A stretch of DNA of 64,000 bases from Bacteroidales bacterium (GTDB lineage Bacteria; Bacteroidota; Bacteroidia; Bacteroidales; GCA-2748055). Below the pieces are notes generated by a model that saw only the letters and a list, made by a program, of their open reading frames with translations, was not told where the DNA came from and ran no database searches. Of this stretch, positions 1 through 32,175 are shown one piece after another (position 1 is the first letter of the stretch; the number at the start of each line of letters is the position of its first letter). The position numbers and the translations under genes are program-made. The DNA lies in NCBI GenBank assembly GCA_029210585.1, contig JARGFP010000006.1, positions 7,949 to 71,948 on the forward strand. The letters run 5' to 3'.

Positions 1-1457
1 AACAGGATTGAATCCTGCAACCCGGGCAGGGAAGGAATTTTAAATTCAGTGGACAATTCCACGTTCCCGCAGCCAAGGGCGTGCACCCCGATATTGTTGT
101 TAAAAGCAAGGTCTTCAAAGAATACATAGTCATAGAAAACACCCGTGGTATCTGTATATGCCAGGTATTTTTCGTTCCGGGGAACAATCGAATCCACCGC
201 CAGGGTGCTTGAGCTCATCCCATGTTTGAGCACGGCAAAGGCCAGGTTGGGTTTGCCTGCACGATTCACTGCTTCGGCATAGCGCAGGTACAGCATCGCC
301 ACGCGATACACCGGGACCGCCCTGGAAATGTCGGTTGCCATCGTTGTAAATTTGGTGATCTGGTTCATTGTCCGGTCCACATCCATAATATCGTTGGTTT
401 CGATCACCGGAGATGATTCCGGGCTGAGATAGGACCCCATGTCCCCCCGCAGGTCACCTGGTCTCTGAACAGAGGCGGTATGGTAATAGGTTTGGTCATT
501 CCATGTGTCGATGGCAGCTGAAGAGGGAATGATTTCAGGATCGAACCAGGTGATACTGTCCAGGTAGGCTCCCTCCCCAAATTCGGCAGAACCAGCGATC
601 AGGGTAATCTGTTCATAATTGGTAAGTGTAAAGATATAGGGCCAGCCCTGGTTCTCGGGCTCTCTCGACACGAAAACACCATTATCCACTTCCCACAATG
701 ATTGAAAAAAGTCGTCGATCGTATAGGTCTCCTCCTGGATAAGGGCGTAGAATTCACCAGCTGCTTTCTCATAATCACCGTTCCAGAGGTAGAGTTCACC
801 CAGGACCATGCGGACGGGAAAAAAGAGGACATCACTGGAGAGGTCAGCGCCCAGGGAAATTCCCCCGGGAAGGTCAACATCCGTCCATGGGGCAAGATCA
901 TCAATCAATTCAGGTACAAGTGCATCAAGGGTGTACTCAGCAGTTTCCACTTCTTTGTTCACATACAAAACAGGCTCGGTATAATACTGTACAGTACCAT
1001 AGTTAAGTGCTGCCTGCATATAGGTCCAGGCGCGTATGGCCTTGGCAGCGGCAAATTCCTTGTACATCACTTTTTCTGCGTTTGCAGTCAGTGCTGTATC
1101 AATTATGGTTATGAGGTAATTGCAATGATTGATCACCGCATAATAGTCTTCCTGCCGGTTGAATGGATTCTCTGTTGTGATTTTGAAATCATTGATCTCC
1201 TGCAAAAAGGGATCCGCATTGGAGGTGACATCCATCAAATCGCCACGAAGTTCCCCCAACAATATGTACCGGTCTGCAAGTTTCTCAAGCTGGGTAAAAA
1301 TACCGATCATGGAAAAGATCGTATCATTTGGAGAATTCAGCTGATGGTCACCGGGGTATACCAGCCGGTCTGAATCAACATCCAGCAGGGTGTTGCATCC
1401 CATCGCCAATACTGCAAGTAGCGCAGGTACTGTAAATATTTTGGTCAGTTTCTTCAT
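1..1457 (-). CDS. RagB/SusD-family outer-membrane lipoprotein (N-terminal ~485 aa; 3' end runs off the left edge)
   Basis: Absent from the ORF track because it is open at the window edge. The reverse-strand ATG at 1455-1457 gives MKKLTKIFTVPALLAVLAMGCNTLLDVDSDRLVYPGDHQLNSPNDT (lipoprotein signal plus Cys). I hand-translated the same frame at positions 3-137 and found no stop. It lies 68 nt downstream of a SusC-type gene, the canonical susC-susD order. Confidence 0.8.
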   Translation of the reverse strand, partial: MKKLTKIFTVPALLAVLAMGCNTLLDVDSDRLVYPGDHQLNSPNDTIFSMIGIFTQLEKLADRYILLGELRGDLMDVTSNADPFLQEINDFKITTENPFNRQEDYYAVINHCNYLITIIDTALTANAEKVMYKEFAAAKAIRAWTYMQAALNYGTVQYYTEPVLYVNKEVETAEYTLDALVPELIDDLAPWTDVDLPGGISLGADLSSDVLFFPVRMVLGELYLWNGDYEKAAGEFYALIQEETYTIDDFFQSLWEVDNGVFVSREPENQGWPYIFTLTNYEQITLIAGSAEFGEGAYLDSITWFDPEIIPSSAAIDTWNDQTYYHTASVQRPGDLRGDMGSYLSPESSPVIETNDIMDVDRTMNQITKFTTMATDISRAVPVYRVAMLYLRYAEAVNRAGKPNLAFAVLKHGMSSSTLAVDSIVPRNEKYLAYTDTTGVFYDYVFFEDLAFNNNIGVHALGCGNVELSTEFKIPSLPGLQDSIL

Positions 1458-1525: not shown

Positions 1526-4500
1526 TTACAAATCCATTTTAATACCGATTAGAAAAGTCCTCGTGTGCGGTGTCAACCCTGTATCAATGCCCTGGAACAA
1601 CACGGAGGGATGGGCCGATACCTCTGGGTCGCGCCCCAGGTAACTGGTCAGGGTCCACAGGTTGCGCGCAGCAACCCAGATGTCCATTCCGTCAATCGCG
1701 CTGTTATTGACCGGGATCCTGTAGCTGACAGAAAGCGATTTTAGCCGCAGGTAGGAACCATCTTCGATCCACCGGTCCGAAAAACGTGCATTTCCCATGG
1801 GATCCTGGTAAACAACACGTGGCTGGCCGGTTTCCTGTCCTTCATAATACCAGCGATTCAGTACCGCTGTGGTCTGATTCATGAATCCGCTACCTGCTTC
1901 AAGTTCCGAACGCAGGTAATTATAGATGTCATTTCCATAGGAAAAGGTAAAAAATGCTTCGACTGTAAAATCCCAGATGGAAATTTTACTGCTAAAGGAG
2001 CCGTAAAGATCAGGATTCGGATCTCCAATGATCTGTTTGTCATTGTCATTGATGATCCCATCTGCCATTTCATCTGCAAAATACATATCGCCGGCCCCGA
2101 ATGCATGCGTTGCACCGGTTGAATCTGTCATCACCAGGGGATCCGCTTCCACATCGGATTCACTGGTGTATACGCCATTGGTCCTGTAGCCATAAAACAC
2201 ACCTGCAGGATATCCTACCCTGGTCAGAATCTCTGCATCATATGCAGACGTTACGATATCTCCATCAGGCAGGGATTCGATCCTGTTCCTGTAATGTCCG
2301 ATACTCATACCAAGCTCCCACTTCAGAATATCCAGGTTCAGGAGTTTTGCATTTGTATAGACCTCAAAACCCTTGTTGGTCATTTCACCGCCGTTGTTCC
2401 AGTAGAACCCGCTACCCGCAATTAATGGCAGCGATTGAAGTGTGAGCAGGTTACTGATTTTATTGTTGTAGATATCAGCTGAAACAGCAATGCGATCGTT
2501 GAACAGATTCGCATCCACGCCAACACTCATTTTTGTCGAAGTCTCCCATTGTATTTCCTCATTACCAATATTCCCGATAATGAGCCCGTTGGCCCGGTCC
2601 ATATAGCGTGTCGATGTGAACCAGGGACTCCATGCATAAGGGTCAATGCCATCGTTGCCGGACTGGGAAATGCCACCGCGAATTTTCAGACGATCAATCA
2701 ACGTTGCATTGGCCATGAATTCTTCAGAAGAGAGCAACCAGCCGGCATGCAGCGATGGAAAAACACCCCAGCTGCGATTGAACAGTTGCAGGCCGCCGAT
2801 GGTTGCATTCCCGAAACGTGAGGATCCGTCCATGGCAACTGTGGCAGTGACAAAATAACGGTTATCGTAGCTGTAATCTGCATTGAGGAAGTTTGAAATT
2901 GATTTTATCTCATTATGCGCCCCGCTGGTACTTCTGAAATCTTCTTCATTCAGTAAGTTTCGTTTTTGGTCGGATCCCGAATTATGTCCTTCGGCATAAT
3001 CCAGTTCATAACTATCAGATATATAGCGCCAACCTGCGATGGCATCCAGGCGGTGTTTGCTGTCTGACCGGTACCTGTACTCCAGGCGGGTCTCGTCAAA
3101 CAAAGTGATGTTGCGCATTTGCTGACTTTTGAACACATTCTCTGATAATCCCAGGCCGGGCAGGTAGCGGTCTGCGACGCCTATGATCGGACTGTAGTAG
3201 GTTTCCTTGAACCTGTCGAGGCTGTAATCAAACTGCGAACTGAGCGACAGCGATGGGGCGAGCTGAATTACAGGTTTGGCACCCAGGTTCAGCCGGTAGT
3301 GTTTATTTGTATTCAATGCTTTTTCAATGATCGCAGTCGGGTTCCCCACATTGAAATCATCACTGTCGACCACATCTGTGGTCAATGTGCCGGAGGCAGT
3401 GTATGAATAAGGATTCAGGAAGGGGGCCTTGATCATGGCCAGGTAGGCTGGTGAGGTATAGAACTGCACGCCATCATCGAGTAAATTACGGTCCACATTG
3501 GTAAATCCAACATTCAAGGCCATGTTGATTTTATCGGTCATGACAAAATCAGCATTGAACCGTGTATTGAGCCGCTGCAGGTCGGTGCTCTTCACCACTC
3601 CTTTGCTTCCTGTATACCCCATGGTAAAAGCATAGAGCGCCCGCTCATCTCCACCTTCAACGCCGATGTTGTAGCTTTGTATATTGCCCTGCTGGTATAC
3701 CTCATCCGCCCAGTTGGTGCTGTTATGATAGGTATTATAGTCCAGCCTGGTCGGATCATCCTGCAGGTAACCCAGTTCGTTGATCTGCATGCCGGGCATA
3801 TCCGTAGATCCCAGCAAATCAGTAACATATAGCCTGAACTGATCTCCATCCATCATCGGCAGGATGCCGGGTTGTTCTACGATCCCTCCCAGGGCATTCA
3901 CGGTGATCTTGGTGGCCATGTCCCTTCCCCGCTTCGTTTTTACAAGGAGCACTCCGTTTCCTCCTTTACTGCCATACATGGAGGTACCGTCCCTGATCAC
4001 AGTGACGCTTTCAATGTCGTTCACATCAATATCCGCAAGCTTATTGATAAAATTACCTGCATGCAGGGAAACCAGGTCGTGGTATGTATTCCATACCACA
4101 CCATCCACAACAATCAGAGGCTGTGCATTGAGATTGAGCGAGTTCAGTCCCCTGATAAACATTCTTGAACCATTCCCTGGCGCACCGGAGGCTGACAAGA
4201 TCCGCACCTCTCCGCCCAGGCGTTCCTGTAATACTTCATCCACAGAAATTTTAGACGGTGGCCCTATTTCATCCAGTTCTCCCAGGGCATTTGTTGCATA
4301 TGTACTCCGAACAGGTCCTGTGATCCCCTGTATGTCCCTGTACAAGTCTGTAAATACATCCGGATACAGTTCGATGCGCAGGTCCTTTTTCCCCTGAACA
4401 GGTATTTCCCTGGGATTATAATCGTATGCGAAGACAAACAACACTTCATTCTCAGAACCTGCCTCAATTGTGAATTCCCCGTTTTCATCAGTTGTTGCAG

Positions 4501-4735
4501 CGGCCAGGTGATTAAGCGCCCGTACCTGTACCGCTTCAAGGGGTGTTTTTGTTGCTGCATCAAGAACGAGCCCTTTTACTGTTACTACTGAATCGCCTGG
4601 TACCTGGCCGGTCTGACCGGAAACAGAAGTAAAAAAACCCAGTACCAGGAAAGCAAATACCTGGCGTCGTATTTTTTCAGGTAAGATAAACCCTGTTGTG
4701 CTTTTGATGATCATATTTTTGTTCATTAGTGCCAT
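1526..4735 (-). CDS. SusC/RagA-family TonB-dependent outer-membrane transporter (pair 1)
   Basis: 1069 aa with an ATG at 4733-4735. Signal peptide, then a carboxypeptidase-regulatory-like N-domain (VTVKGLVLDAATKTPLEAVQVRA). Plug region (IESVTVIRDGTSMYGSKGGNGVLLVKTKRG). Long beta-barrel with a typical SusC C-terminus (YLRLKSLSVSY ... GIDTGLTPHTRTFLIGIKMDL). Confidence 0.93.
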   Translation of the reverse strand: MALMNKNMIIKSTTGFILPEKIRRQVFAFLVLGFFTSVSGQTGQVPGDSVVTVKGLVLDAATKTPLEAVQVRALNHLAAATTDENGEFTIEAGSENEVLFVFAYDYNPREIPVQGKKDLRIELYPDVFTDLYRDIQGITGPVRSTYATNALGELDEIGPPSKISVDEVLQERLGGEVRILSASGAPGNGSRMFIRGLNSLNLNAQPLIVVDGVVWNTYHDLVSLHAGNFINKLADIDVNDIESVTVIRDGTSMYGSKGGNGVLLVKTKRGRDMATKITVNALGGIVEQPGILPMMDGDQFRLYVTDLLGSTDMPGMQINELGYLQDDPTRLDYNTYHNSTNWADEVYQQGNIQSYNIGVEGGDERALYAFTMGYTGSKGVVKSTDLQRLNTRFNADFVMTDKINMALNVGFTNVDRNLLDDGVQFYTSPAYLAMIKAPFLNPYSYTASGTLTTDVVDSDDFNVGNPTAIIEKALNTNKHYRLNLGAKPVIQLAPSLSLSSQFDYSLDRFKETYYSPIIGVADRYLPGLGLSENVFKSQQMRNITLFDETRLEYRYRSDSKHRLDAIAGWRYISDSYELDYAEGHNSGSDQKRNLLNEEDFRSTSGAHNEIKSISNFLNADYSYDNRYFVTATVAMDGSSRFGNATIGGLQLFNRSWGVFPSLHAGWLLSSEEFMANATLIDRLKIRGGISQSGNDGIDPYAWSPWFTSTRYMDRANGLIIGNIGNEEIQWETSTKMSVGVDANLFNDRIAVSADIYNNKISNLLTLQSLPLIAGSGFYWNNGGEMTNKGFEVYTNAKLLNLDILKWELGMSIGHYRNRIESLPDGDIVTSAYDAEILTRVGYPAGVFYGYRTNGVYTSESDVEADPLVMTDSTGATHAFGAGDMYFADEMADGIINDNDKQIIGDPNPDLYGSFSSKISIWDFTVEAFFTFSYGNDIYNYLRSELEAGSGFMNQTTAVLNRWYYEGQETGQPRVVYQDPMGNARFSDRWIEDGSYLRLKSLSVSYRIPVNNSAIDGMDIWVAARNLWTLTSYLGRDPEVSAHPSVLFQGIDTGLTPHTRTFLIGIKMDL

Positions 4736-4750
4736 GTAGATTTATATGCC

Positions 4751-6289
4751 TCACTCTAATACAGGTTCCAGGATGATGCAATCGATACGCATCGTTCTGG
4801 AGAATTCTCCGGATTGCTCTTCAACAGCAGTGACATCATTGATCACTTCCAATTTTACAGCGATCCTTTCAAATTCATCGGAAATTACATTCGCGAACTC
4901 GAAATCAAATTGTGTGACCAGCATTTTCATCATGCCAAAAGGCAGCGTGATATTATCCTCCGGCGTGATCCTGCTTACAAAAGTACTGCCGCTGGTCCTG
5001 CGGATATAGGTAAGCACAAACCTCGCCTTGGTTGGAATAAAGTCCAGGGGGTTCACAATGGATGGCGGAACGAACACGCAATAGATGTTGTATTTTGCTG
5101 AGAGTGTATTCGGTATGGAAAATTCAACACTGGGATCTGCCGAAGTGGGGTCCACCAGGATGTAGTTGTTTTCCGAAACATCCAGACCTGAACCATAGCT
5201 GCTGCGGGGAAAAATATTGCTGTTTACATTGATCCTGCCTTCCTGATCTTCTGCCTCAATGCGGATCTCCCGGAACCATGAATCGGTATCGGAATAAGGC
5301 ATCCTGGAGGTTACATGGGCCAGCCCGTTGCTCAGGGGTACCTGGTCGGTATTGCTGAACAGGCTGCCCGGATTATCAAATACAGTTCCGGTTGTGGAAA
5401 CAAGGGAATCAAGGCTGGAGGGTTCTGAAACAACCCCTTCAAACAGCATGTCCTGCACCAGGGTAAATTGAGATTCCTCGCGTTGCCGCTCCCTGCCGCC
5501 TGCATCTTCGGGGAAGTTGAAATAGGGTTCGATCCGGCTATATGCCTCGATCCATGCAGTATTATCCGGAAAAATCGCAGTGTATATGCTGTCTTCGTTA
5601 TCGATTGCCCCTATCTCGTCCAGCACGGGATTGCTGAAGATAAAAACCGTGTCATATACTGCCTGGCCATCTTCATTGACCCCGATCTCCACGCTGTTGA
5701 CCGGATCAAAGATGTTTCTGCTCTGGCCAAAGAGGTACGTGCGAAGCGAGTCAAGGGTTTCCTCTTTCCCGATAAACTCCCAGAGGTTATTCTGATAGGG
5801 TGCATATCCGTCGATCACGTGAAGCAATCCATTAACAGCAGGGGTATTCACTTCAAGCACATTTGAATTCCCGAATGTGTAGCCAGCAGCTTCACGCGAA
5901 AAATAGATGAATTTACCGTTCAACATGCGGATTGCCTGTTGATCAACTCCTGTAGTGGTATAGCGGCTCCTTGCAATATGATTACGAACGATATCCAGCA
6001 CCAGGTCTGCATTGGTCGTGTCCAGTCCTGCAAGCGCGGCATTGCTGGGGGCCCATACTGTAAAGGATTGTGATGCATCAAGAAGCTGGTCATATCCCGA
6101 GATTTTCAGCATGCCGGAAAAGGTGCTTAATCCGGGATGCTCCCGGATATGCGCTGTCAGAGTCTTGTCAGGCAAATTGAACGATCCCGGATCGTAATGT
6201 TCGCTCCATTTTTCCGTGCATGCAGTACCCGTCAACACAAGGGCCATCAGCGCACAGGGCAGGAAACATTTGAGATATGTACTTTTCAT
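4751..6289 (-). CDS. Fasciclin (FAS1)-domain surface lipoprotein with C-terminal beta-sandwich-like region
   Basis: The ORF track extends to 6421, but that extension overlaps the upstream gene. The ATG at 6287-6289 gives MKSTYLKCFLPCALMALVLTGTACTEKW (lipobox). FAS1 H1/H2-like motifs are FTVWAPSNAALAGL ... GLLHVIDGYAP. A second, degenerate copy is YTAIFPDNTAWIEAY ... GLAHVTSRMP. The C-terminal ~150 aa (IRIEAEDQEG ... MRIDCIILEPV) looks like a CBM-type beta-sandwich. Confidence 0.8.
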   Translation of the reverse strand: MKSTYLKCFLPCALMALVLTGTACTEKWSEHYDPGSFNLPDKTLTAHIREHPGLSTFSGMLKISGYDQLLDASQSFTVWAPSNAALAGLDTTNADLVLDIVRNHIARSRYTTTGVDQQAIRMLNGKFIYFSREAAGYTFGNSNVLEVNTPAVNGLLHVIDGYAPYQNNLWEFIGKEETLDSLRTYLFGQSRNIFDPVNSVEIGVNEDGQAVYDTVFIFSNPVLDEIGAIDNEDSIYTAIFPDNTAWIEAYSRIEPYFNFPEDAGGRERQREESQFTLVQDMLFEGVVSEPSSLDSLVSTTGTVFDNPGSLFSNTDQVPLSNGLAHVTSRMPYSDTDSWFREIRIEAEDQEGRINVNSNIFPRSSYGSGLDVSENNYILVDPTSADPSVEFSIPNTLSAKYNIYCVFVPPSIVNPLDFIPTKARFVLTYIRRTSGSTFVSRITPEDNITLPFGMMKMLVTQFDFEFANVISDEFERIAVKLEVINDVTAVEEQSGEFSRTMRIDCIILEPVLE

Positions 6290-6308
6290 ATTCTGTTTCT
6301 TTTCGGAC

Positions 6309-8282
6309 TTAATAGATATCTTCGTATTCCAGTACTTCAACCGGGACAAATTCGAGGTAATCGAACATGAACTCACCTGCGCGCACTGCTTTGACTGCAA
6401 AGGTATGTGTGCTTGCTTCATTGAATGTAAAAATGCCCAGGATGCGCCGCAATGCGGCCGGGCTCATACGTGCACTTGCCCCGCTGTACCAGGCGGTATT
6501 GATCACTTTAAAGCTGGCCGGCCCTTTCATGTATCCACGGTTCCGCATCATTTTGTCATTTTCGAATCCTTCCGGGTCAGCCGGGTCCAGGCCGGGTTGA
6601 ACGTAGCCAATCTCTGGTTCACTTGCATAAATCCGCAGGTCCAGCGGAATTCCTGTCGGCTTGCCATCCCAGTACAGCTGGGCGGCGCCCCTGAAAATCG
6701 TTGGCTGGTATCCGAACCTCACTTCGTAGGTGCCTGCCGGAATGGGAGGAGTGGTTATTTCAAAATCGTACAGTCCCTGCAGCCAGACCTCGTCCCCCTG
6801 GTAGTCACAAAAACGGTCATCGGCATTGTAGTACGCAAAATTTGTGGTTTCGGAGGTTTTGAGCCGCTCGATGTACCCCCTTGGAAAATACCACATCTCT
6901 GAAGGGTAATCGGGGGTGGCATGCCCCACCCGGATATTGTTGTTGGTCAGTTCCGGAAAGAAACTGGCTGCATCCATGCGCAAGCGCTTGCTGGAGATCA
7001 TCCTGTCCACCGCCTGCGAATACGCAAGAATGTTGTCGATTTCATGGTATACGCCATTCACGGCATCATTGTCAAAATTCTCTGTCAGGCGGATCACATC
7101 ACCGCTTTCCGGTATCATGTTGAACTGGTTATACTCGCTGGTGGTCCGCAGGGTACGCACTTCGAGCAGTGTATTTGGACACAAGGTCTCGATATACTCA
7201 AACATATCCACGGTCTTGATGGAATGGGTTTCACCCCTGGATTCATAGAACTGCCCGGTGTTGTCATATTTTTCAATGAACAGCCTGCTGGACAACTTCT
7301 TATTAATCAAGTGGTAAGCGACAAATCGGTTCAGGCTGTTCCTTCGGTCCGTAATATCGGTAATGGAAGCATCTTCAGGATACATCAGGTCATAGACTCC
7401 CCTTGCATATTCCTTCATGTCCTCCAGGTCGTTAATACCCGCATTGGCGTAGGTGGCATTGTTTTCCATCAGGGCAGTAAAACCGTACTTGCGTTCCTTT
7501 GGTACATGTATGATACTTCCGATGGGATAGAATGTCCCTTCTCTTTCCTCATACAAACTTCCCGGATCATAGGTTTCATCCTTGATGGGAAGCAATTCCC
7601 GGTCGAGGCCCGTTGCAATCAATGCTTCAAAGAACAGGGAAAAGTCGTCATCTGCAGCAATGGCTTCAATGAGGGTATTTTCCGTTGGTGAAAGCACCTT
7701 GTTGATGGTATGCACCACACCGTTATGCACCTCAATATCCCTGGCGCCTATCACAGAGGTGGTATTTACGCGATATAAAAGGGTACTCTCACCCGGCTCA
7801 AAACTGATTTTGAGATAACGACCGCTCATGGTCAGATTGGGAAGAAAGCCATCGACAAATTCATCCGAAGTCACGATAAAATCGCTGATGATGTGGTCAT
7901 ACGCGATTTTTTTCAGTGTGTCAGCGGTAAAATCATCCAGTGAATTCTTGCCCTTGGAATGGTAGAAATTAAACATTGCCTCGTTGTCCGGGAGAAAGCA
8001 GGTATATTTTCCATAGGCATTCAATAATCCCATCACACCACCTAACTCAAGCATCCGGGAAAATTCTGAATAGGTTTCAGGCCGATTGGCAATATAGTCA
8101 CCCATGGTCTCCCCTGTAAATGTGTAGTAGGTGTCCCCGACATCATCGCTGTCGCATCCAGCCAGAAGACCAGCCAGGAGGACTGCGATCAGCAGATAAC
8201 TGCCAAAAGAGCGATACCAACTTGAAATAGGTCTGCTGTTTTCCGGGGTTTTGCCTTGTATATTCCTTCTATTTATCTTCAT
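6309..8282 (-). CDS. Fasciclin (FAS1)-domain surface lipoprotein, two FAS1 modules plus C-terminal beta-sandwich-like region
   Basis: 657 aa with an ATG at 8280-8282. Lipobox LLAGLLAGCDSDD. FAS1 motifs are YTCFLPDNEAMFNFY ... GVVHTINKVLSPT and GVYHEIDNILAYS. The C-terminus reads AGTYEVRFGYQP ... FMFDYLEFVPVE. Confidence 0.8.
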   Translation of the reverse strand: MKINRRNIQGKTPENSRPISSWYRSFGSYLLIAVLLAGLLAGCDSDDVGDTYYTFTGETMGDYIANRPETYSEFSRMLELGGVMGLLNAYGKYTCFLPDNEAMFNFYHSKGKNSLDDFTADTLKKIAYDHIISDFIVTSDEFVDGFLPNLTMSGRYLKISFEPGESTLLYRVNTTSVIGARDIEVHNGVVHTINKVLSPTENTLIEAIAADDDFSLFFEALIATGLDRELLPIKDETYDPGSLYEEREGTFYPIGSIIHVPKERKYGFTALMENNATYANAGINDLEDMKEYARGVYDLMYPEDASITDITDRRNSLNRFVAYHLINKKLSSRLFIEKYDNTGQFYESRGETHSIKTVDMFEYIETLCPNTLLEVRTLRTTSEYNQFNMIPESGDVIRLTENFDNDAVNGVYHEIDNILAYSQAVDRMISSKRLRMDAASFFPELTNNNIRVGHATPDYPSEMWYFPRGYIERLKTSETTNFAYYNADDRFCDYQGDEVWLQGLYDFEITTPPIPAGTYEVRFGYQPTIFRGAAQLYWDGKPTGIPLDLRIYASEPEIGYVQPGLDPADPEGFENDKMMRNRGYMKGPASFKVINTAWYSGASARMSPAALRRILGIFTFNEASTHTFAVKAVRAGEFMFDYLEFVPVEVLEYEDIY

Positions 8283-8294
8283 CTTCGCTGCTTT

Positions 8295-9857
8295 TTAATC
8301 GTACAATCCTTCAGATATAAGTTCGTAGTATGAATTCTGTTCCAGGGCCGGATTTGCCTTGAGTTCATCGGTATGGATCGGCAGGTAGAGTGCGTCCATT
8401 ACCGACATCTTGGTTGCCTGGATCGTGGCACTTCCGGTAAATTTCTTCACCACATAGTTCAGCAAGGGTGAAGGTTCATTTTCCCTGCGCGCCAGGCGCA
8501 TCAAATCAAACCAGCGCTTCCCTTCAAACATCAGCTCGCGCTGACGTTCCCGCAGGAGCAATTTGTCGAGATCCAGTTTTGTATTGTAATTGGACAGCCT
8601 CAGTTCTCCGTCGATGAGCTCGGGATTCGCCCGCAGGTAGGTGGCATTGATCAGGTCCATCGCATCTTCGAGGTTGGTTTGGAGCTGGATCAGGGCTTCG
8701 GCCTTCATCAGCATGATTTCGGGGAGCCGGTAGACGATCCAGTTGGCCGAAGTACTGCGGTAAATGTAGGTACTAACCCCGGTGGTGACGTTCTCCTGGC
8801 GCAGCGCACCTGCATATTTAAAGACAAAATACCTGTCGCCACCGGTTTCCTGCCTGAGGAAATCCTTTTCCCGCAGATCCTCTTCACTTTCCTTAGCAGT
8901 TCCCGCCTGGAAATCGAACGGACTTGCATCCCCGGTAACAAGCACGCCAGGAAAACTCCACTGTCCGTTCTGGTATCCATAGTAACCAAAGAAATCCCGG
9001 GCCACCCAGTTGAACATGATATCATCATCAAACTGAAGTTCAAAAATGCTTTCCGATGAATTTCCCAGGTAGAAAACTTCTGAAATCACATCTTTACCGG
9101 GTACCAGTGCCAGTTGCTGTTCCGTATCGCTCAATACCTGGTCGCAGAGTTCCACGCATTTACTGTATTCCTCCTGCCATAAATAGATATCAGCCAACAA
9201 TGCCCTCACTGCGTTCCGGGTGATCCTTCCCTTGTTATAATCGGGAATCTCGAACCTGTCGCGTGCAAAGATCATGGCTGTTTCAAGGTCGCTTACAAGG
9301 TGCGTAAGGATCGTGTCTTCGGGAGATTTTGGAATCGTGTATTCCTGGGCATCATCAATACTGGGGTTGTCGATCCAGGGAACCTCTCCGAAGGTTCTCA
9401 CCAGGTAAAAGTAGGACAGCGCCCTGATTGTCAGCACCTCTGCTTCCATGGCGCGCAGTTTTGATTCGGTGAAATTCGGATCAATTTTCACCACCCGGGG
9501 AGCATAATGCAAAAAGTTATTGCAATAGTTGATCACCGTGTACATTGAGCCCCAGTGGCAGTATTCATTGTCGGGCGAGATATCCACATTCAGCATTTTG
9601 TACATATCCGTTGGCATTCCGTTACCGAATGTAACGTTATCGGAGCGCAGTTCCCCCCAGACGACCATCCTGCCCATGGTTCCAGGTTCGGTAAGGGACC
9701 TGTAACAGGCCGAAAGCACCTGGTTGACCTGGCTTTCATTCTGCCAGTAATCATCCAGTACGATTTCGCTTTCAGGCCTGATATCCAGCCAGTCACTGCA
9801 AGAAGTGGCTGTGAACAAGAACCCTGTGATTGAAAGTATTGATACTATGCTTTTCAT
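8295..9857 (-). CDS. RagB/SusD-family nutrient-binding outer-membrane lipoprotein (pair 2)
   Basis: 520 aa. MKSIVSILSITGFLFTATSCSDWLDIRPESE is a lipoprotein signal followed by the typical SusD N-terminal motif. TPR-like helical content. The conserved C-terminal block is RERQRELMFEGKRWFDLMRL. Confidence 0.92.
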   Translation of the reverse strand: MKSIVSILSITGFLFTATSCSDWLDIRPESEIVLDDYWQNESQVNQVLSACYRSLTEPGTMGRMVVWGELRSDNVTFGNGMPTDMYKMLNVDISPDNEYCHWGSMYTVINYCNNFLHYAPRVVKIDPNFTESKLRAMEAEVLTIRALSYFYLVRTFGEVPWIDNPSIDDAQEYTIPKSPEDTILTHLVSDLETAMIFARDRFEIPDYNKGRITRNAVRALLADIYLWQEEYSKCVELCDQVLSDTEQQLALVPGKDVISEVFYLGNSSESIFELQFDDDIMFNWVARDFFGYYGYQNGQWSFPGVLVTGDASPFDFQAGTAKESEEDLREKDFLRQETGGDRYFVFKYAGALRQENVTTGVSTYIYRSTSANWIVYRLPEIMLMKAEALIQLQTNLEDAMDLINATYLRANPELIDGELRLSNYNTKLDLDKLLLRERQRELMFEGKRWFDLMRLARRENEPSPLLNYVVKKFTGSATIQATKMSVMDALYLPIHTDELKANPALEQNSYYELISEGLYD

Positions 9858-9997
9858 CGATTAATTTTTAAATGTTATCAAGTCCGATAGTGCCCGACAT
9901 AACAGCCTGTCAATGGTTCCTGTCGCCTGGTGTGAATTATGCACCAGCGTGTATGAGAATACTATTGTCATGGCCCGGTTCATATCCCTTATTTTTA

Positions 9998-12900
9998 TCA
10001 GAATGAGATGGTTATACCCAGAGTAATATCTTTTGAACGGGGGGTGCTGGAATTGTCCTCGCTCACACCCAGTGCGCCATAGCCCACTTCAGGATCCACC
10101 CCGGTGTACCTTGTGAAAACGAACAGATTGTTCATCGTCAGGTAAAAGTTAAGCTGTTTCACGTCCCTGTCACTGAGCTTGTCCCTGGGAATGGAATAAT
10201 TCAGCGTCAGGTATTTCAATCGCATAAATGAACCATCTTCCACGTACCGGTCACTTCCCAGCCAGTTGTATCCATAATTATATAATGCGCGGGGCATGTC
10301 TGTCTCGTCCCCGTCCTTGCGCCACCGCCAGTTCACGGACACGCTCTGGTTGTTCAGTGTATACATGTTCTCCGCATACATCCGTGCCTTGTTGACGATC
10401 TTGTTTCCATAACGGAAATTAAAGAAGGCGGTCAGGCGCAGGTTTTTATAGCGCAACGTTGACCCGAAGCCTCCGTTGACCTTGGGGTTTGAATTTCCCA
10501 GGTAGACAATGTCCAGTTCGTCGATGGTTCCATCATGATTGATATCTTCATACATCGCATCACCGCCCCTGAACTGATAGGCATTGCTCCTGCCATAGGC
10601 AAAATACATGGGCAATGGATTGCCGTCCTGGTCTGTAAACACCTGGCCATTTTCATCCCTGGCTACAGGTGCATTTTCCTGGACACCAGGAATGTACTCG
10701 TTGTACTGGTAGACACCCAGGTACCTGAACCCGTAGATCGAACCGTAGGAATTGCCTTCCTGGATTCGGGACAGGTAAGAGCCGTTTGCATAGTTGAAAT
10801 CACCATTGACATTGGCCAGCACATCATCGCGCAATTCGACGATCGTATTCACGTAATTGGAAAGGTTGAAGTTAAAGTCGATCACAAAGTCATTGATCCT
10901 GAATCCATTGTTCGTGTAAAAATTCAGTTCCCAGCCATTGTTATCCATGGAGCCCACGTTCTGCACCGGGACACTGTAAAAACCAGATGAGCTCGGGATC
11001 CTGAGGTTTCTGAACAGCAGGTCGTCGGTACGTTTGTTGTAGAAATTCACATCAAACATAAAACGGTTGTGCATAAATCCCAGGTCCAGGCCGTAATTCA
11101 GCGAGGTGGTGGTTTCCCATTTCAATTCCGAAAGCCTGAGTGTTGTCGGGCGGGTAGCAGGCATACCGATATAGCTCTCATAGGGAGAATAGCGGCTGAA
11201 GTGGAGGTACTCCTCCCAGGGCTGGTTCCCGCTGATCCCCCAGCTCACACGGAAAGCCAGGATGCTGAGCCAATTGTACGCTGCCCGCATAAAAGATTCA
11301 TCAGAAATGATCCATTTCACTGATAAACCGGGGAAATTTCCATACTTATTGTTGTTACCGAATTTTGTGCTGCCATCCCTCCTGAATGTAAATCCAAGTA
11401 TGTACCTGTTCTTATAGGAATAATGTCCCCTGGCCAGCAATGCATTTGAACGGTAGGAATAGCGGCTTGAGGAGATACCGTCGATATACCCGAACGCGGA
11501 CGGATCAATGATCTCTCCTGATGGCAGGTTGGTATTCGCTGTACCCATGCTGGAATTACTGCCGGTCCGTATCTGAAAGGATCCGTAAAGCAAGAGGCTG
11601 TGATCCGGGTTACTGAATTTAGGTTGATAGGTAATGTTATTGTCAGTCATCACTGTCATACTCTCAGAATCCGTTCCCTGGGCGAGGTTCACGGCACTGC
11701 TGTTCCATGTGGAATTGGTGGCCTCCCTGGGCAGGAACCTGGTCACCTGGTCGTTGTTGACGTCGAAGGATACATACATATTGTACCGGAGGGTATGCAC
11801 TTCCGGATCCAGCAAATCATACTGCAACCTGAATGTTGGCAGGATCCTGTAGTTCTTTAAATTGTTCCTGGCCAGCATTGCGAGCGCCACCGGATTTCTC
11901 AGGTCGCGCTGTTCCCAATGCAACTGCGATTGCCGGGAAATATTAGAGAAAACGTCTGTATCATTGCCCTGCAGATCCTGCTGGTAGACACCAACATTGG
12001 GCATTTTCCGGTATGCGATCCCCAGCAGGTTTTCATAATTCCTGTCATTATCCGAATAGGTAAATGAAAGCTCAGAGATAAACTTGATCCTCCTGGACAC
12101 AGAATAGTCGAGGTAGGCCCGTGAAGAAATCCTGTTCAGTTCCTGTCCGATGACGGTTCCTGTCTGGTTCAGAAAACCTCCCGATATGCGAAATCTTGCC
12201 CGGTCTCCTCCCCCGGAAACAGTGAGGTAATTGTCGTGTTTGAAACCGGGTTGCGTCACTTCGGCAACCCAGTCGGTATTGTTGTTAAAATTCTCATATT
12301 CAGAATAAGTGGGGTCATACAGGAATTCACGGACATTGGCTGCATTTTCATCCTGGTAGGGATTAAAATAGGCCTGTTTGATCAGCATCGTATAGTCGTC
12401 CCCGTTCAACATATTGAGGCCCTGGGGCTGAATGGCACCGGTAAGGCGGTAGGAATACTGAACCGTTGTGGGTCCCCGCGTTCCTTTTTTGGTTTTGATC
12501 ACCAATACGCCGTTGGCACCCTTGGATCCCCATACGGCTGTGGCCGAAGCATCCTTCAGTACCGTAATCTCCTCGATGTCATCCGGGTTGATACTCAACA
12601 TGTTGGCATATTGTTCCTCGTTGGCACTGGCGAAATCAAAGGAAGGGTCGATCTCCACCTCGTAGGGGATATTATTGAGAACGATCAGTGGCTGGCTGTT
12701 TGAGTTAATAGATGTGGCTCCCCTTATTCTCATGGTCGTACCGGCTCCCGGGTCTCCTGAATTGGCAATAATATCCAGTCCGGCCACCCTACCCTGCAGC
12801 GCATCATCGATGGAGGTCACCTGCACGCCTTCGAAAGACCTGGTGCTGATGGTCTGCACTGCAGTGGAAACTTCCCGCTGCGGGATATCGATGGTTCCGT

Positions 12901-13282
12901 CGCTGTGCTTCCTTTCGGCGGTTATCACTATTTCATCGATCATCTGCAGGTCTTCTTCAAGCACCACATCAATCGTACGTTTATTGCCTATATCCAGTGT
13001 CTGGGGATGAAACCCGATAAAACTGCACACCACTTTGTTCTCCGGGTTTTTGATCTTAAGCACATACTGGCCATTGACATCGGTGATGGTCGCGTTGATG
13101 ATCCTGTTATTATCATCCACTTCAACCACCGTTGCACTGATCAGAGTTTCACCATCCGTTGCGGATGTCACCGTCCCCTGTATTACCCTTTCCCTGTTTC
13201 CCTGGCTAAATACAGCGATTGGAACAAGTAAAAACGCGACGAAAAATATTCCAGCTAATTTTAGTTTCATAATCATTGTCAT
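9998..13282 (-). CDS. SusC/RagA-family TonB-dependent outer-membrane transporter (pair 2)
   Basis: The ORF track starts at a TTG (13291). The first ATG is at 13280-13282 (MTMIMKLKLAGIFFVAFLL), 1 nt after the upstream stop. CarboxypepD_reg-like domain (VIQGTVTSATDGETLISATVVEV). Plug (IEEITVLKDASATAVWGSKGANGVLVIKTKKG). The C-terminus ends ITLGITISF. Confidence 0.93.
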   Translation of the reverse strand: MTMIMKLKLAGIFFVAFLLVPIAVFSQGNRERVIQGTVTSATDGETLISATVVEVDDNNRIINATITDVNGQYVLKIKNPENKVVCSFIGFHPQTLDIGNKRTIDVVLEEDLQMIDEIVITAERKHSDGTIDIPQREVSTAVQTISTRSFEGVQVTSIDDALQGRVAGLDIIANSGDPGAGTTMRIRGATSINSNSQPLIVLNNIPYEVEIDPSFDFASANEEQYANMLSINPDDIEEITVLKDASATAVWGSKGANGVLVIKTKKGTRGPTTVQYSYRLTGAIQPQGLNMLNGDDYTMLIKQAYFNPYQDENAANVREFLYDPTYSEYENFNNNTDWVAEVTQPGFKHDNYLTVSGGGDRARFRISGGFLNQTGTVIGQELNRISSRAYLDYSVSRRIKFISELSFTYSDNDRNYENLLGIAYRKMPNVGVYQQDLQGNDTDVFSNISRQSQLHWEQRDLRNPVALAMLARNNLKNYRILPTFRLQYDLLDPEVHTLRYNMYVSFDVNNDQVTRFLPREATNSTWNSSAVNLAQGTDSESMTVMTDNNITYQPKFSNPDHSLLLYGSFQIRTGSNSSMGTANTNLPSGEIIDPSAFGYIDGISSSRYSYRSNALLARGHYSYKNRYILGFTFRRDGSTKFGNNNKYGNFPGLSVKWIISDESFMRAAYNWLSILAFRVSWGISGNQPWEEYLHFSRYSPYESYIGMPATRPTTLRLSELKWETTTSLNYGLDLGFMHNRFMFDVNFYNKRTDDLLFRNLRIPSSSGFYSVPVQNVGSMDNNGWELNFYTNNGFRINDFVIDFNFNLSNYVNTIVELRDDVLANVNGDFNYANGSYLSRIQEGNSYGSIYGFRYLGVYQYNEYIPGVQENAPVARDENGQVFTDQDGNPLPMYFAYGRSNAYQFRGGDAMYEDINHDGTIDELDIVYLGNSNPKVNGGFGSTLRYKNLRLTAFFNFRYGNKIVNKARMYAENMYTLNNQSVSVNWRWRKDGDETDMPRALYNYGYNWLGSDRYVEDGSFMRLKYLTLNYSIPRDKLSDRDVKQLNFYLTMNNLFVFTRYTGVDPEVGYGALGVSEDNSSTPRSKDITLGITISF

Positions 13283-13283
13283 T

Positions 13284-15830
13284 TTATTCAAACCTCAGTA
13301 CTTCGTCAATTTGATGAATGACGGCTGTTGATGAAGTTGTTATGGATGATGCATTGAAATCAGCGCCGGTGCCCGTTCCATCAACCTCCCTGTAGGCCAG
13401 TGGATTATTGCTGAAAATATAATCGCGGACCATCATGTTGTAGAGGCCATTATCGGTAACGACCCGGGCGGTGCCATAGTTTTCGGTTGAGAGCTGCAGG
13501 TTGTCCCCATTGCCGGAGATCCCCAGCCTGTAGTACTTGTCTTTGTATGTTCCGAACTGTGTTGTTTCCTCGTCCATTTTGATGGTAGCGGTCTGGTAGA
13601 GCTTGTCCACCGGTGTGCCACTGATGTACACTGAATTGTCCTGGAAATGATACCTCAGGAAACGTTCCAGTTTTTTTATCTCTTCTGCACGGGCCGAAGT
13701 AGTGTCCGGCATGCCGTTGATCTCCTCCCAGTCGCTGATCAGGTTATCATCAATTGCCTGCCGGATTGCTTCATTGGTAGGTACATACACCGTGTAGTTA
13801 AAGGTATTGAAAAACTTGATATTGAAGTCGATCCCGTAGTAATTGGTTTTCTTGACGAACACCTCGTTCGTTGTACCTGTCAAACCGTTCAGCAACAGGA
13901 AAAACTCACTGAATTCAGGGGTTTCGCTCAGCACCCTGTACACTGATCGAAGGGGTGTCTGAATGGGTTTGTCGATGAAATAGGTGATCCCGTTTTGTTG
14001 TTCAAAGACTCCGTTTGGCACCACATTCACTGCGATACCCCTTACGATGTCATTGCCTCCCTGCACCTGCAGGTTGTCCCCGGTACCCTGTACCTTGATT
14101 GAATTCCCGTTTTTGGTGAAATAATACTGTTCCCCGGATTCCACATCGCCCACTACAATGTGCGAATCAAGGACATCCAGCAACCTGTTGGCAATGAAGC
14201 TCCGGTCAGTAATCACGGCAACGGAATCTCCCACGATATCATTCACGGCATCATAGGCATAGATGGTGGCATTTACCCTGCTGGTCTCTGTATTGTACCA
14301 GTATTTCATCACTCCCTTCACATCCTTGGCGTAGGCGACCGGATCGATATAGTTATTAAAAAACGCATCGGTCGGGACAAACAGGCTGTACCGGCTCACA
14401 AGCGAGTTCAGGTAGAGCCTGAAGTCGTTTTCCCGGATCACCCAGTTAAATACCCGCGTTTTCTCACTGAAAAGAACCGGTCCGTACACCGAAACATAAT
14501 CGTCAGGCGGATATACTTCATCTGTCTGGTATACCACACCGTTTACGCCCACATAGGTACTTTGCACATCGGAAGTGACAACAGGAATAGGAGAATTTTC
14601 GCTGTCATTCATTTTATCAAACCTGCTCGGAACAGTCTCGATAAAGGAAGTCCTCAGGTGTCGCTTAAGAAAAAGCATCACTATATCGTCCGGAATGCGG
14701 TCCCAACTCCCATAGCGGTCACGCAGCACGATCCCGCTGCCTGTTTCAAAATAGGCATTCATGGCTGCATCGGAAGGACTCAGAATTGCTGCCATATCCG
14801 ATTGCAGGGCACTGCCTGCGCCAGGGGGCACATAACTGTTCCTGCCCGGATTAAAGGGCAACAGGAATTCGGTGCTGATCAGGCTCCCGTTGGGATAACG
14901 CACTGCCCCGTCGACGGCAGAAAAGTATTGTTTTTCATAGATGGAGTCGATCGGCTGGTCCGGATTGACCTGGTTATACTCAATGGTCTGGTTGTCGTTA
15001 AAATAGGGTGCGCTGAAACGTTCCAGCAGGCTGGAAAAGATCTGGGTGTCCGGGTTCCTTCGCAGGTGCTCAGCAATATTGACCGGTGGGATCAGCACTT
15101 CTTCCAGCACATGGATATATCCGTTCTTACAGGTAATGTCCCGCTCGACCACCTTGACATTAAAAATATGTGCATCAGTCTGTTCCCGTTCCGCGCCGGT
15201 GATCAGTGTAAAATCACTGTTACTGATTCCGGCGTTTGAAAGCGTGCTTGGCAAAAAATGCACCATCGGCCAGGATGTGGCATCTTTCAACAGGTGGATT
15301 CCCTGGGTGCGAAATCCATTCCAGACAGGTCCTTGTGGCAGCATATCTCCCGATTCAAATGGAATGCTGTCCAGCACGGATACTGCCGTTTCGCGCCTGA
15401 GGGCTGTTCCCAGTTGCAGGCTCCCGTCGAAATAATTGGAGAGTGTTTCGACCAGGTACGCATTATTGATCATCGTGAAGTTGAGGATCAGCTTTTTCTG
15501 TGACACGGAAAGGTCGTCATAGCTTCCCACATTCCATTCATTGTCCTGGAAGAAACGATCAAATGCATCATCATCGGCCACAAACAACGTTTTGCTGCCC
15601 GACTTTGCAAGCACAGAGGTATACCCGATATCGTCAATCAACCTTGTATAATTGGTAAAATTGCCATCTTCCACCAGGTAATCATAGATACTTGCGCCGA
15701 GCCACTCCGGCTCACTGTCGTCATACAAATAATCGTCCTTGCACGAAACAAAAAAAACACTCATGCCCAGCAAGAGTGTGGCAAGGAAGAGAGGATAAAT
15801 ACTTTGTTTCCAGGATCCTTTTTTCATCAT
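13284..15830 (-). CDS. Multi-FAS1 (fasciclin) lipoprotein, about four FAS1-like modules
   Basis: 848 aa. Lipobox MSVFFVSCKDD. Four H1-like/H2-like pairs: TLFVADDDAFDRFF ... GYIHVLEEVLIPP; AAILSPSDAAMNAYF ... GVVYQTDEVYPP; SLFVPTDAFFNNYI ... GITYFIDKPIQTP; YTVYVPTNEAIRQAI ... AVIHQIDEVLRFE. Confidence 0.8.
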   Translation of the reverse strand: MMKKGSWKQSIYPLFLATLLLGMSVFFVSCKDDYLYDDSEPEWLGASIYDYLVEDGNFTNYTRLIDDIGYTSVLAKSGSKTLFVADDDAFDRFFQDNEWNVGSYDDLSVSQKKLILNFTMINNAYLVETLSNYFDGSLQLGTALRRETAVSVLDSIPFESGDMLPQGPVWNGFRTQGIHLLKDATSWPMVHFLPSTLSNAGISNSDFTLITGAEREQTDAHIFNVKVVERDITCKNGYIHVLEEVLIPPVNIAEHLRRNPDTQIFSSLLERFSAPYFNDNQTIEYNQVNPDQPIDSIYEKQYFSAVDGAVRYPNGSLISTEFLLPFNPGRNSYVPPGAGSALQSDMAAILSPSDAAMNAYFETGSGIVLRDRYGSWDRIPDDIVMLFLKRHLRTSFIETVPSRFDKMNDSENSPIPVVTSDVQSTYVGVNGVVYQTDEVYPPDDYVSVYGPVLFSEKTRVFNWVIRENDFRLYLNSLVSRYSLFVPTDAFFNNYIDPVAYAKDVKGVMKYWYNTETSRVNATIYAYDAVNDIVGDSVAVITDRSFIANRLLDVLDSHIVVGDVESGEQYYFTKNGNSIKVQGTGDNLQVQGGNDIVRGIAVNVVPNGVFEQQNGITYFIDKPIQTPLRSVYRVLSETPEFSEFFLLLNGLTGTTNEVFVKKTNYYGIDFNIKFFNTFNYTVYVPTNEAIRQAIDDNLISDWEEINGMPDTTSARAEEIKKLERFLRYHFQDNSVYISGTPVDKLYQTATIKMDEETTQFGTYKDKYYRLGISGNGDNLQLSTENYGTARVVTDNGLYNMMVRDYIFSNNPLAYREVDGTGTGADFNASSITTSSTAVIHQIDEVLRFE

Positions 15831-31278: not shown

Positions 31279-32175
31279 ATGAATTCAATACTTCAGGCGA
31301 TGAAATACCTACTGCTCAATGTTTGCATTGTATTGCTCCCGGGCGTCCTGTTTGCGCAGGATACCACCTATTTATATGCCAGTGATTTCGGGATCACTGA
31401 GCACATGGATGATGCGAAATACATGCGAAAAATTGACAGCAGGTCGGTGCGAAGGAGCGTGGTAAAGACCTATGAACCTGAGGGTGACGAATGGGTGCGC
31501 ATCAGGAAGGAAAAAACCGTGCGGGTCAATGATACCCTGATGCAGATTCGTCGCAAGGCGGACAAGTTATGGCCCGAGGTTATCTCGAGGTCATTTCACC
31601 TCCAGGAGGATGGCTTGTACCGATTCACCGACAGAAAAAGGGGCAGTCTCGTCCTGGAAGGAACTGCAACCAGCCTGGTCCCGCTGCACCTGGAGGATAC
31701 CGTCAGATCGTATTACACCAAAAACATGCCCAAGTCTGTTGCAATCTATAAAAACAACAAACTGATCAGGAACCGGAACTGGCTGCGTAACGGGAATGAA
31801 TATTACGACAACCTGCACTATTTCGTCGACCAGGCCCCTGAGCACAGCCTGGGACAGGTTCATTTCAGGGCCTATATGCTGAATGGCATCGCGGAGTCGG
31901 GAATCGATCTGAGCCAGATCAGCGACAGGGTGGTAATCGGCTGGGTGGTGCTGGAGGACGGCAGCCTGGAAGGTTTTCATACGATTTCAGGAGTATTTTC
32001 CCAGTTGAACAATATACTGATCAATCTCATCAGGGAGATGCCCGGTGAATGGCAACCGGCAATGCTCGATGGCCGCCCGGTACGTTATTACATGAACATC
32101 CCGTTCAATTTCATCGACCGGTCGGAGCGCTTTGAGACACTGGAACTCAGTACTGGATTTGTCTCCTGGGATTAA
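31279..32175 (+). CDS. Secreted hypothetical protein with a TonB C-terminal-like domain
   Basis: ATG at 31279 (or 31300) gives MNSILQAMKYLLLNVCIVLLPGVLFAQD (signal peptide). The C-terminal VVIGWVVLEDGSLEGFHTISGVFSQLNNILINLIREMPGEWQPAMLDGRPVRYYMNIPFNF resembles the TonB_C / energy-transducer fold pattern. The N-terminal two thirds are unrecognised. Confidence 0.55.
   Translation: MNSILQAMKYLLLNVCIVLLPGVLFAQDTTYLYASDFGITEHMDDAKYMRKIDSRSVRRSVVKTYEPEGDEWVRIRKEKTVRVNDTLMQIRRKADKLWPEVISRSFHLQEDGLYRFTDRKRGSLVLEGTATSLVPLHLEDTVRSYYTKNMPKSVAIYKNNKLIRNRNWLRNGNEYYDNLHYFVDQAPEHSLGQVHFRAYMLNGIAESGIDLSQISDRVVIGWVVLEDGSLEGFHTISGVFSQLNNILINLIREMPGEWQPAMLDGRPVRYYMNIPFNFIDRSERFETLELSTGFVSWD

Follow-up and report, generated by a model that had tools for sequence, protein, structure and literature searches.

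What do two fasciclin (FAS1) lipoproteins do when their genes lie between the SusD of one transporter and the SusC of the next? The question is posed by a metagenome-assembled genome of a Bacteroidales bacterium (GenBank assembly GCA_029210585.1), in which we analyzed a stretch of 64,000 nucleotides (contig JARGFP010000006.1, positions 7,949 to 71,948; hereafter the window). Two adjoining minus-strand genes, FAS-2 (6309..8282) and FAS-1 (4751..6289), encode lipoproteins of 657 and 512 amino acids (aa), respectively, each with a predicted FAS1-FAS1-beta-jelly-roll layout. Surface glycan-binding proteins (SGBPs) largely determine which glycans a Bacteroidota cell can capture, and they are the least predictable components of polysaccharide utilization loci (PULs), because their sequences are not conserved. 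We favor, with moderate confidence, the reading that FAS-2 and FAS-1 are surface-exposed, non-catalytic glycan-binding lipoproteins (i.e., SGBPs) of a PUL with two SusC/SusD (SusCD) pairs, in which a FAS1 stalk would carry a head resembling a carbohydrate-binding module (CBM).

FAS-2 and FAS-1 are lipoproteins encoded between SusD and SusC

The minus strand carries every gene from position 21546 down to position 1. The genes are tightly packed in the order CotH protein, glycoside hydrolase family 128 (GH128)-like protein, 848-aa FAS1 protein, SusC-A, SusD-A, FAS-2, FAS-1, SusC-B and SusD-B, and the locus is a PUL with two SusC/SusD pairs. The gene for the SusD-like lipoprotein A (8295..9857, minus strand; Pfam SusD_RagB and SusD-like_3), which follows that of the SusC-like TonB-dependent transporter A (9998..13291, minus strand; TIGR04056, 731 bits), stops 12 nt upstream of the FAS-2 start. 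FAS-2 and FAS-1 are separated by 19 nt, and the gene of the SusC-like transporter B (1526..4735, minus strand; TIGR04056, 590 bits) starts 15 nt past the FAS-1 stop.

A database protein identical (100%) to FAS-2 is annotated as 'fasciclin domain-containing protein'. The longest open reading frame of FAS-1 (4751-6421) is ∼44 codons too long and would extend 113 nt into the 3′ end of FAS-2. We placed the start at 6289, because the listed homologues are mostly ∼510-516 aa long and begin at the equivalent of MKSTYLKC. A chance or mis-called open reading frame was ruled out, both families having hundreds of full-length homologues at 45-80% identity.

FAS-2 has the lipobox LLAG-C43, followed by DSDDVGD, and the lipid-anchor cysteine of FAS-1 (Cys24) is followed by TEKWSEHYD. 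In 37 homologues of each family, a cysteine closes the signal peptide and the lipobox is conserved, so that both genes are confirmed as the lipoprotein genes that an earlier note on this DNA had taken them for. The consensus after the cysteine is [DN]SDD[VI]GD in the FAS-2 family and [TS][KD]EWD[ED]HYDE in the FAS-1 family. Acidic residues right after the lipidated cysteine are the surface-export signal of Bacteroidota lipoproteins (Capnocytophaga, Bacteroides). The acidic stretches resemble this signal, and the predicted fit is very good for FAS-2 and moderate for FAS-1.

When the full proteins were searched against Pfam (E ≤ 0.01) and NCBIfam, Pfam returned one Fasciclin domain per protein and NCBIfam none; there was no CBM, SusE/F, domain of unknown function or catalytic domain. 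Because no SusE/F model matches, FAS-2 and FAS-1 are not SusE/F proteins by family. A cryptic enzyme was ruled out as well, since there was neither a catalytic-domain signal nor a catalytic-domain structure among the top fold matches. As PUL lipoproteins that are encoded beside SusC/SusD and have no catalytic domain, both FAS-2 and FAS-1 are candidate SGBPs.

Tandem FAS1 domains

The first FAS1 domain was identified directly with Pfam PF02469, both in FAS-2 (∼aa 58-198; 7689..8111, minus strand; E 2e-18) and in FAS-1 (∼aa 44-160; 5810..6160, minus strand; E 5e-15). The scores of 67.2 and 56.2 bits, respectively, compare with a cut-off of 22 bits, and judged by sequence the FAS1 assignment is far above chance. 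In FAS-2, the match to TGFBIp (E 2.9e-20), the secondary structure of the model (DSSP) and the motifs H1 KYTCFLPDNEAM (aa 92) and H2 NGVVHTIN (aa 187) agree with this assignment; in FAS-1, the corresponding motifs are SFTVWAPSNAAL (aa 75) and NGLLHVID (aa 153). Sequence searches of the PDB with both proteins returned TGFBIp and periostin.

The second FAS1 domain of FAS-2 (∼aa 204-420; 7023..7673, minus strand) has large insertions. It is recognized by a profile of residues 201-430, which matches TGFBIp in the PDB (E 2.7e-5), by a Foldseek alignment of ∼373 columns to 1o70_A and by the H2 motif NGVYHEID (aa 409). Since Pfam detects one FAS1 per protein, the second module of FAS-1 (∼aa 169-327; 5309..5785, minus strand) is defined by the predicted structure, including its Foldseek matches to TGFBIp and periostin, and by the H1/H2-like motifs IYTAIFPDNTAW (aa 235) and NGLAHVTS (aa 321); a profile search of the PDB with the middle region of FAS-1 gave no significant match to a second FAS1.

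The AlphaFold2 models reached a predicted local-distance difference test (pLDDT) score of 86.3 and a predicted template-modeling (TM) score (pTM) of 0.84 for FAS-2, and a pLDDT of 88.2 and a pTM of 0.73 for FAS-1. When compared with the best tandem-FAS1 structures, Foldseek aligned ∼370-381 columns of FAS-2 and 324-334 columns of FAS-1 (E 1e-13 to 1e-14), and single FAS1 domains gave target-normalized TM scores of 0.78-0.86. In the predicted structures, then, the alpha/beta FAS1 fold is present twice in tandem in FAS-2 and in FAS-1. The count of two FAS1 modules per protein in the earlier note thus stands, the first by Pfam and the second by model and motifs, with a profile match in addition for FAS-2 only.

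The first FAS1 domains of FAS-1 and FAS-2 are related to one another (hhalign probability 98%), and hhalign detected no relation between the middle parts or the tails of the two proteins. Because the homology is limited to the first FAS1 domain, FAS-1 was rejected as a recent duplicate of FAS-2.

The earlier note had counted two FAS lipoproteins, and the locus encodes three. The third (848 aa, ∼four FAS1 modules, hereafter 4xFAS1; 13284..15830, minus strand) is encoded directly upstream of SusC-A and was recognized by Pfam Fasciclin (E 2.8e-19), motifs, a hidden Markov model and synteny. Its lipobox FFVS-C is followed by KDDYLYDDSE, H1-like motifs are found at aa 79, 346, ∼480 and ∼678 and H2-like motifs at aa 236, 430, 613 and ∼836, and it has no beta-sandwich tail. 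The locus therefore holds about eight FAS1 modules spread over three lipoproteins and, because the third one precedes SusC-A, can be read as [FAS]-SusC-SusD twice over.

C-terminal beta-jelly-roll tails

Both proteins end in a putative CBM-like beta-jelly-roll, which covers aa 431-657 of FAS-2 (6312..6992, minus strand) and ∼aa 342-512 of FAS-1 (4754..5266, minus strand). DSSP analysis of the models gave a beta-rich region at residues 431-650 of FAS-2 and 342-509 of FAS-1. The earlier note had quoted IRIEAEDQEG ... MRIDCIILEPV of FAS-1 and AGTYEVRFGY ... FMFDYLEFVP of FAS-2 as signs of C-terminal beta-sandwiches: these and all its other motifs were recovered in the translations, and the beta-sandwiches are borne out at the level of the predicted fold (DSSP and Foldseek).

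For FAS-2, Foldseek found the xanthan-binding module MiXBM/CBM84 (7ehg; E 6e-5, target-normalized TM ∼0.6), CBM35 (2w1w; E 3.5e-3), a Paenibacillus xanthan lyase, CBM-like parts of GH43, GH87 and GH115 enzymes, and domain III of a Cry toxin. For FAS-1, it found CBM22 of Xyn10B (2w5f; E 2.7e-5), MiXBM (E 2.7e-5) and CBM35 (2w1w; E 9e-5, TM 0.65), in addition to APC10 and a phage tailspike. The CBM matches were attributed to the tails, the sole all-beta parts of the queries, since the targets are themselves all-beta domains of ∼130 aa. The structure prediction and Foldseek search that the earlier note had proposed thus led to predicted tails that share the beta-jelly-roll fold of CBM22, CBM35 and CBM84 modules. 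The two tails are not detectably homologous to one another (hhalign probability 0.3%).

With the FAS-2 tail as query, an exhaustive HMMER search (E ≤ 1e-3; representative clusters at 50% identity) recovered 443 representative clusters; in nearly all cases the match was C-terminal in a protein of 600-750 aa. Among 62 sampled full-length matches, which reach down to ∼25% identity, Pfam Fasciclin was present in 55, and the other Pfam matches were limited to one FGE-sulfatase and one LRR_5 protein. No catalytic domain of a carbohydrate-active enzyme (CAZyme) was found in this sample (0/62), and the FAS-2 tail therefore appears to be specific to the FAS1-tail architecture. The FAS-1 tail, used alone as a homologue query, returned 12 fragments of its own family and no new architecture.

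Across the divergent set, R435, P515, R522, P546, R612 and E644 of the FAS-2 tail are invariant, and Y519, E520, Q535, Y537, N581, G583 and D641 are nearly so. Conservation of the FAS1 parts across distant relatives is mainly confined to residues of the classical H1, H2 and YH motifs. Because the tail residues are conserved while the FAS1 parts keep mainly these motifs, the pattern of polar and aromatic residues suggests a functional site in the FAS-2 tail.

Distribution and conservation of the gene order

A large protein collection contained 882 relatives of FAS-2 and 333 of FAS-1, mostly from Prolixibacteraceae, Marinilabiliaceae, Maribellus, Saccharicrinis and similar organisms. Species-representative genomes contained at least 302 loci with FAS-2 relatives, and the best 80 were mapped with the window proteins (tblastn); the counts below refer to evaluable loci. 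SusD immediately precedes FAS-2 in 54 of 70 loci, and a FAS-1-like gene immediately follows FAS-2 in 50 of 65. All six genes of the core 4xFAS1-SusC-SusD-FAS-2-FAS-1-SusC are present in 40 of 50 loci, in genomes of Prolixibacteraceae, Marinilabiliaceae and Paludibacteraceae, and the placement of the 4xFAS1 gene ahead of SusC-A is kept in most related loci. A GH128-like gene lies directly upstream of the 4xFAS1 gene in 19 of 43 loci. Natronoflexus pectinivorans (L001) has the identical gene order, as confirmed by precomputed Pfam calls.

These counts, together with the 12 nt between susD and FAS-2, uphold the part of the earlier note that put the two genes in the SusE/F position; the same genes, however, stand equally in front of the second SusC. 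The association is also looser than a fixed position. In L070 and L071, FAS-2 paralogues lie ahead of 4xFAS1-SusC without a preceding SusD, and about a dozen loci have FAS-2 paralogues with no SusC or SusD inside 10 kb. In L025 (9929-19148), the neighbors of such a paralogue are a GH2 enzyme, LamG/ricin proteins of the type IX secretion system (T9SS) and two alpha-galactosidases of the GH27/36 type that have NPCBM domains; in L028 (5064-14860), they are a sulfatase, an MBOAT protein and GDSL esterases. Because FAS-2 paralogues occur without a preceding SusD or outside a SusCD context, the association of FAS-2 is with glycan degradation generally, mostly with SusCD units, and not strictly with the 'slot after SusD'. 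That the paralogues of L025 and L028, outside a SusCD context, still sit among glycan-degradation genes supports the assignment of FAS-2 as an SGBP.

The family is amplified in places. Some genomes contain at least four FAS-2 paralogues (Saccharicrinis sp. FJH62; L025, L027, L041 and L042), L071 has three FAS-2-like copies in tandem (3020-7224, minus strand, and 9977-11863, plus strand), and in L052 the FAS-2 match (∼8059-11905) is ∼3.8 kb long, about twice the length of the gene.

Likely substrate

The sole recognizable hydrolase in the same tight gene string is the GH128-like protein (15857..18616, minus strand; Pfam PF11790, E 4e-25), in which the catalytic core is fused to an H-type lectin domain and to a C-terminal sorting domain for the T9SS. 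The hydrolase matches crystal structures of GH128 beta-1,3-glucanases (6uaq and others; E 3e-20).

PUL 10 of Alkalitalea saponilacus contains a GH128 gene (CDL62_12280) and a SusC/SusD pair (CDL62_12310/12315), as reported in 2026 (PMC13591233). This pair is reported to be induced on laminarin and not on xylan; in that study the SusC/SusD pair alone was measured and the FAS genes are unmentioned (PMC13591233). In our set, a locus of the same strain (L021) has the order GH128-4xFAS1-SusC-SusD-FAS-2-FAS-1-SusC-SusD, with a FAS-2 that is 61% identical to the window protein. L021 is probably PUL 10: its second SusC and SusD are the sixth and seventh genes past GH128, in agreement with the spacing of the locus tags, and PUL 10 thus appears to be orthologous to the window locus. 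By the same count, the FAS genes of A. saponilacus should be CDL62_12285, CDL62_12300 and CDL62_12305. The flanks differ: GH16_3, GH43_34, GH2, GH31 and GH97 in A. saponilacus vs. CotH, GH43 and cadherin/LamG proteins in the window. Because of the GH128 gene and the reported laminarin induction of the apparently orthologous PUL, the substrate is likely a polymer that contains beta-1,3-glucan, for instance laminarin or a decorated polymer related to it.

Proposed function and alternative explanations

What the locus itself provides is a gene order, a lipobox in each protein, predicted domain folds and a conserved synteny. On the SGBP reading of FAS-2 and FAS-1, each protein would be cleaved and lipidated at the lipobox cysteine, as its sequence predicts, and might be flipped to the cell surface by means of the acidic stretch that follows the cysteine. 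The N-terminal FAS1 pair would then serve as a stalk, in the role of the Ig-like domains of SusE, SusF and SGBP-B, and would keep the C-terminal CBM6/35/84-like beta-jelly-roll away from the membrane. The tail, in turn, would capture the target glycan and hand it over to the adjacent SusCD transporters, in cooperation with the T9SS-secreted GH128-like enzyme and the 4xFAS1 lipoprotein. Because the tails of FAS-2 and FAS-1 are unrelated in sequence, they probably recognize different epitopes, as do SusE and SusF or SGBP-A and SGBP-B. We infer surface exposure, glycan binding, the substrate and the stalk role of FAS1 from this combination of features.

Several points weigh against this assignment. 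In the literature searched, no functional study reports binding or localization for any member of these families. Neither tail is assigned to a CBM family by sequence (Pfam, E ≤ 0.01). A profile of the FAS-2 tail gave a non-significant top match in the PDB (E 0.67), although this was the same MiXBM as in the fold search, the strands PaGtYevrfg...aqlyldG being aligned with HAGAYDLVLG...YQLQIDG. The profile of the FAS-1 tail returned nothing relevant in the PDB (only an irrelevant kinase, E 0.5). The Foldseek searches were run on full-length models and the tool does not report the aligned query residues, and the jelly-roll fold is also that of domains that do not bind glycans (APC10 and Cry toxin domain III). 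CBMs are usually recognized by their fusion to a catalytic CAZyme module, the very combination that is absent from the 62 sampled proteins with a FAS-2 tail. Finally, FAS-1 has a weaker acidic motif behind its cysteine than FAS-2, and the link to PUL 10 derives from gene order and locus-tag arithmetic.

The FAS1 fold brings in a different explanation, since most FAS1 domains of solved structure make contacts with other proteins, as in TGFBIp, periostin, the phycobilisome linker LRC6 and the CupS subunit of NDH-1. FAS-2 and FAS-1 could then be protein-protein adaptors or scaffolds of SusCD complexes, within a two-transporter 'utilisome', that do not bind glycans themselves. About eight FAS1 modules on three lipoproteins, the twofold [FAS]-SusC-SusD order and a FAS-2 tail that was seen in combination with FAS1 but not with enzymes would all suit such a scaffold. 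We consider it unlikely: FAS-2 paralogues with no SusC or SusD inside 10 kb are hard to square with an obligatory SusCD adaptor, the best-conserved non-structural residues sit in the CBM-like tail, and the tails resemble true glycan-binding modules. Alternatively, these proteins could be adhesins, a role that the paralogues outside PULs would fit; they would then anchor the cell to a glycoprotein or to the surface of algae, plants or particles and hand no soluble glycan over to a transporter. The FAS1 family is classically tied to adhesion (PMC6032426), and abundant FAS1 transcripts in a flavobacterial symbiont have been read in this sense (PMC10199937). The tight co-transcription between SusD and SusC and a placement that is kept in most loci speak against this role, the T9SS proteins of the locus with cadherin-like and LamG domains are better adhesin candidates, and sticking to a polysaccharide surface would in practice also be a form of glycan binding; adhesion is a quite unlikely main function.

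The side of the membrane on which FAS-2 and FAS-1 act bears on whether they are SGBPs in the strict sense. If they faced the periplasm, from the inner leaflet of the outer membrane, they might bind imported oligosaccharides or have an unrelated role. The stretch C-TEKWSEHYD of FAS-1, a poorer match to the export motif than its counterpart in FAS-2, leaves some room for such an orientation, but we regard it as highly improbable, given the near-canonical C-(D/N)-S-D-D of FAS-2, which is conserved family-wide. In addition, lipoproteins encoded beside SusD in characterized PULs are as a rule surface exposed.

A reading that goes beyond that of FAS-2 and FAS-1 as SGBPs, and which we hold to be doubtful, takes the FAS1 lipoproteins for unrecognized, widespread partners of SusCD, with the FAS1 pair itself forming part of a glycan-binding surface or docking to SusC/SusD in a beta-glucan 'utilisome'. 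If it were true, three FAS proteins and two transporter pairs would assemble for beta-glucan capture, the bacterial multi-FAS1 proteins would have their first biochemical function, and the finding might bear on direct polysaccharide contact by plant fasciclin-like arabinogalactan proteins.

Comparison with known systems

Like SusE and SusF of Bacteroides thetaiotaomicron and SGBP-B, FAS-2 and FAS-1 are non-catalytic lipoproteins encoded directly after susD, two different ones adjoining one another. In both cases, non-binding N-terminal spacers are known or predicted to hold C-terminal CBM-like beta-sandwiches off the membrane. The spacer is an alpha/beta FAS1 pair in FAS-2 and FAS-1, whereas Ig-like or PKD domains are used in SusE, SusF and SGBP-B; FAS-2 and FAS-1 have one putative binding-type domain per protein, when compared with two or three in SusE and SusF; and, unlike in the SusE/SusF system, a second SusCD pair follows.

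The beta-glucan and laminarin SGBPs of Bacteroides uniformis, B. fluxus and B. ovatus, and the PKD-CBM proteins of marine Flavobacteriia, probably share the substrate class, are encoded at the same PUL position and presumably have the same role. They set a precedent for SGBP architectures that vary widely between lineages. To our knowledge, none of them contains a FAS1 domain. By word counts, neither 'fasciclin' nor 'FAS1' occurs in the papers on these proteins (PMC7974029, PMC7157763 and bioRxiv 10.1101/2023.09.07.556657).

Fasciclin I (1o70), TGFBIp (5nv6 and 7as7) and periostin (5yjg) share with FAS-2 and FAS-1 the fold, the head-to-tail FAS1 pair and the H1/H2/YH motifs. They are eukaryotic matrix and adhesion proteins that bind integrins and collagens, in contrast to bacterial lipoproteins of a glycan-uptake operon, and FAS-2 and FAS-1 differ from them by the jelly-roll tail and by large insertions in the second FAS1. 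The tails, for their part, are predicted to share the beta-jelly-roll with MiXBM (7ehg), CBM35 (2w1w) and CBM22 (2w5f) at Foldseek E values of 3e-5 to 4e-3 and target-normalized TM scores of 0.5-0.65, and the strand motif G-x-Y-x-(V/L) ... Q-L-x-(W/I)-D-G is common to MiXBM and the FAS-2 tail. With 170-230 aa they are longer than these modules (∼130 aa), show no significant sequence similarity to them and are not joined to an enzyme.

No functional study in the literature that we searched, which lies mostly outside the subscription journals, deals with FAS1 proteins as components of a PUL, and earlier mentions are possible. The label 'FAS1 domain protein' appears in a PUL figure of a Gramella genome report (PMC4891872), and PULs of Bacteroidota lie outside the scope of the main review on FAS1 (PMC6032426). 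FAS1-FAS1-jelly-roll is thus a candidate new SGBP architecture within a known class whose architectures are already known to vary widely.

Should this candidate hold, (i) the FAS1 pair would add a non-Ig scaffold to the SGBP repertoire, and the tails would represent two possibly new CBM families; (ii) the FAS1-FAS1-jelly-roll signature would make candidate glycan binders recognizable among lipoproteins annotated as 'fasciclin domain-containing', in numbers that run to hundreds; and (iii) bacterial tandem-FAS1 proteins would gain a concrete, testable function. Cultivable carriers of the FAS module are A. saponilacus, N. pectinivorans and Maribellus species.

Other genes of the window

At the downstream end of the gene string, the SusD-like lipoprotein B (1..1456, minus strand, running off the window start) was identified by reading its sequence (MKKLTKIF...LAMGC...) and by tblastn matches at the equivalent place in related loci, where Pfam SusD_RagB is found in N. 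pectinivorans. The upstream end is formed by the CotH-domain protein (929 aa; 18757-21546), with a CotH kinase-like domain (E 6.5e-51). Its ends give weak NCBIfam matches to endo-arabinanase and rhamnosidase, and CotH homologues recur near the FAS module in L010, L012, L013, L020 and L055.

A divergently transcribed gene next to the PUL (21785-25444, plus strand) encodes a 1219-aa protein that combines cadherin-like beta-sandwich repeats with LamG_3 (ConA-like) domains and has a weak T9SS tail; in Natronoflexus, the module is flanked by comparable proteins. Further upstream of the minus-strand gene string are a GH43 gene and the gene of a hybrid two-component system regulator (26908..31131, minus strand; Pfam Reg_prop, Y_Y_Y, HisKA, HATPase_c, Response_reg and HTH_18), which is likely the sensor of the locus. 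On the far side of the regulator, 32172-33701 encodes a sulfatase, 33814-35223 an adenylate/guanylate cyclase with a fused HD domain, and 43173-45149 a SASA-type acetylesterase that also has a GH2_N-like domain.

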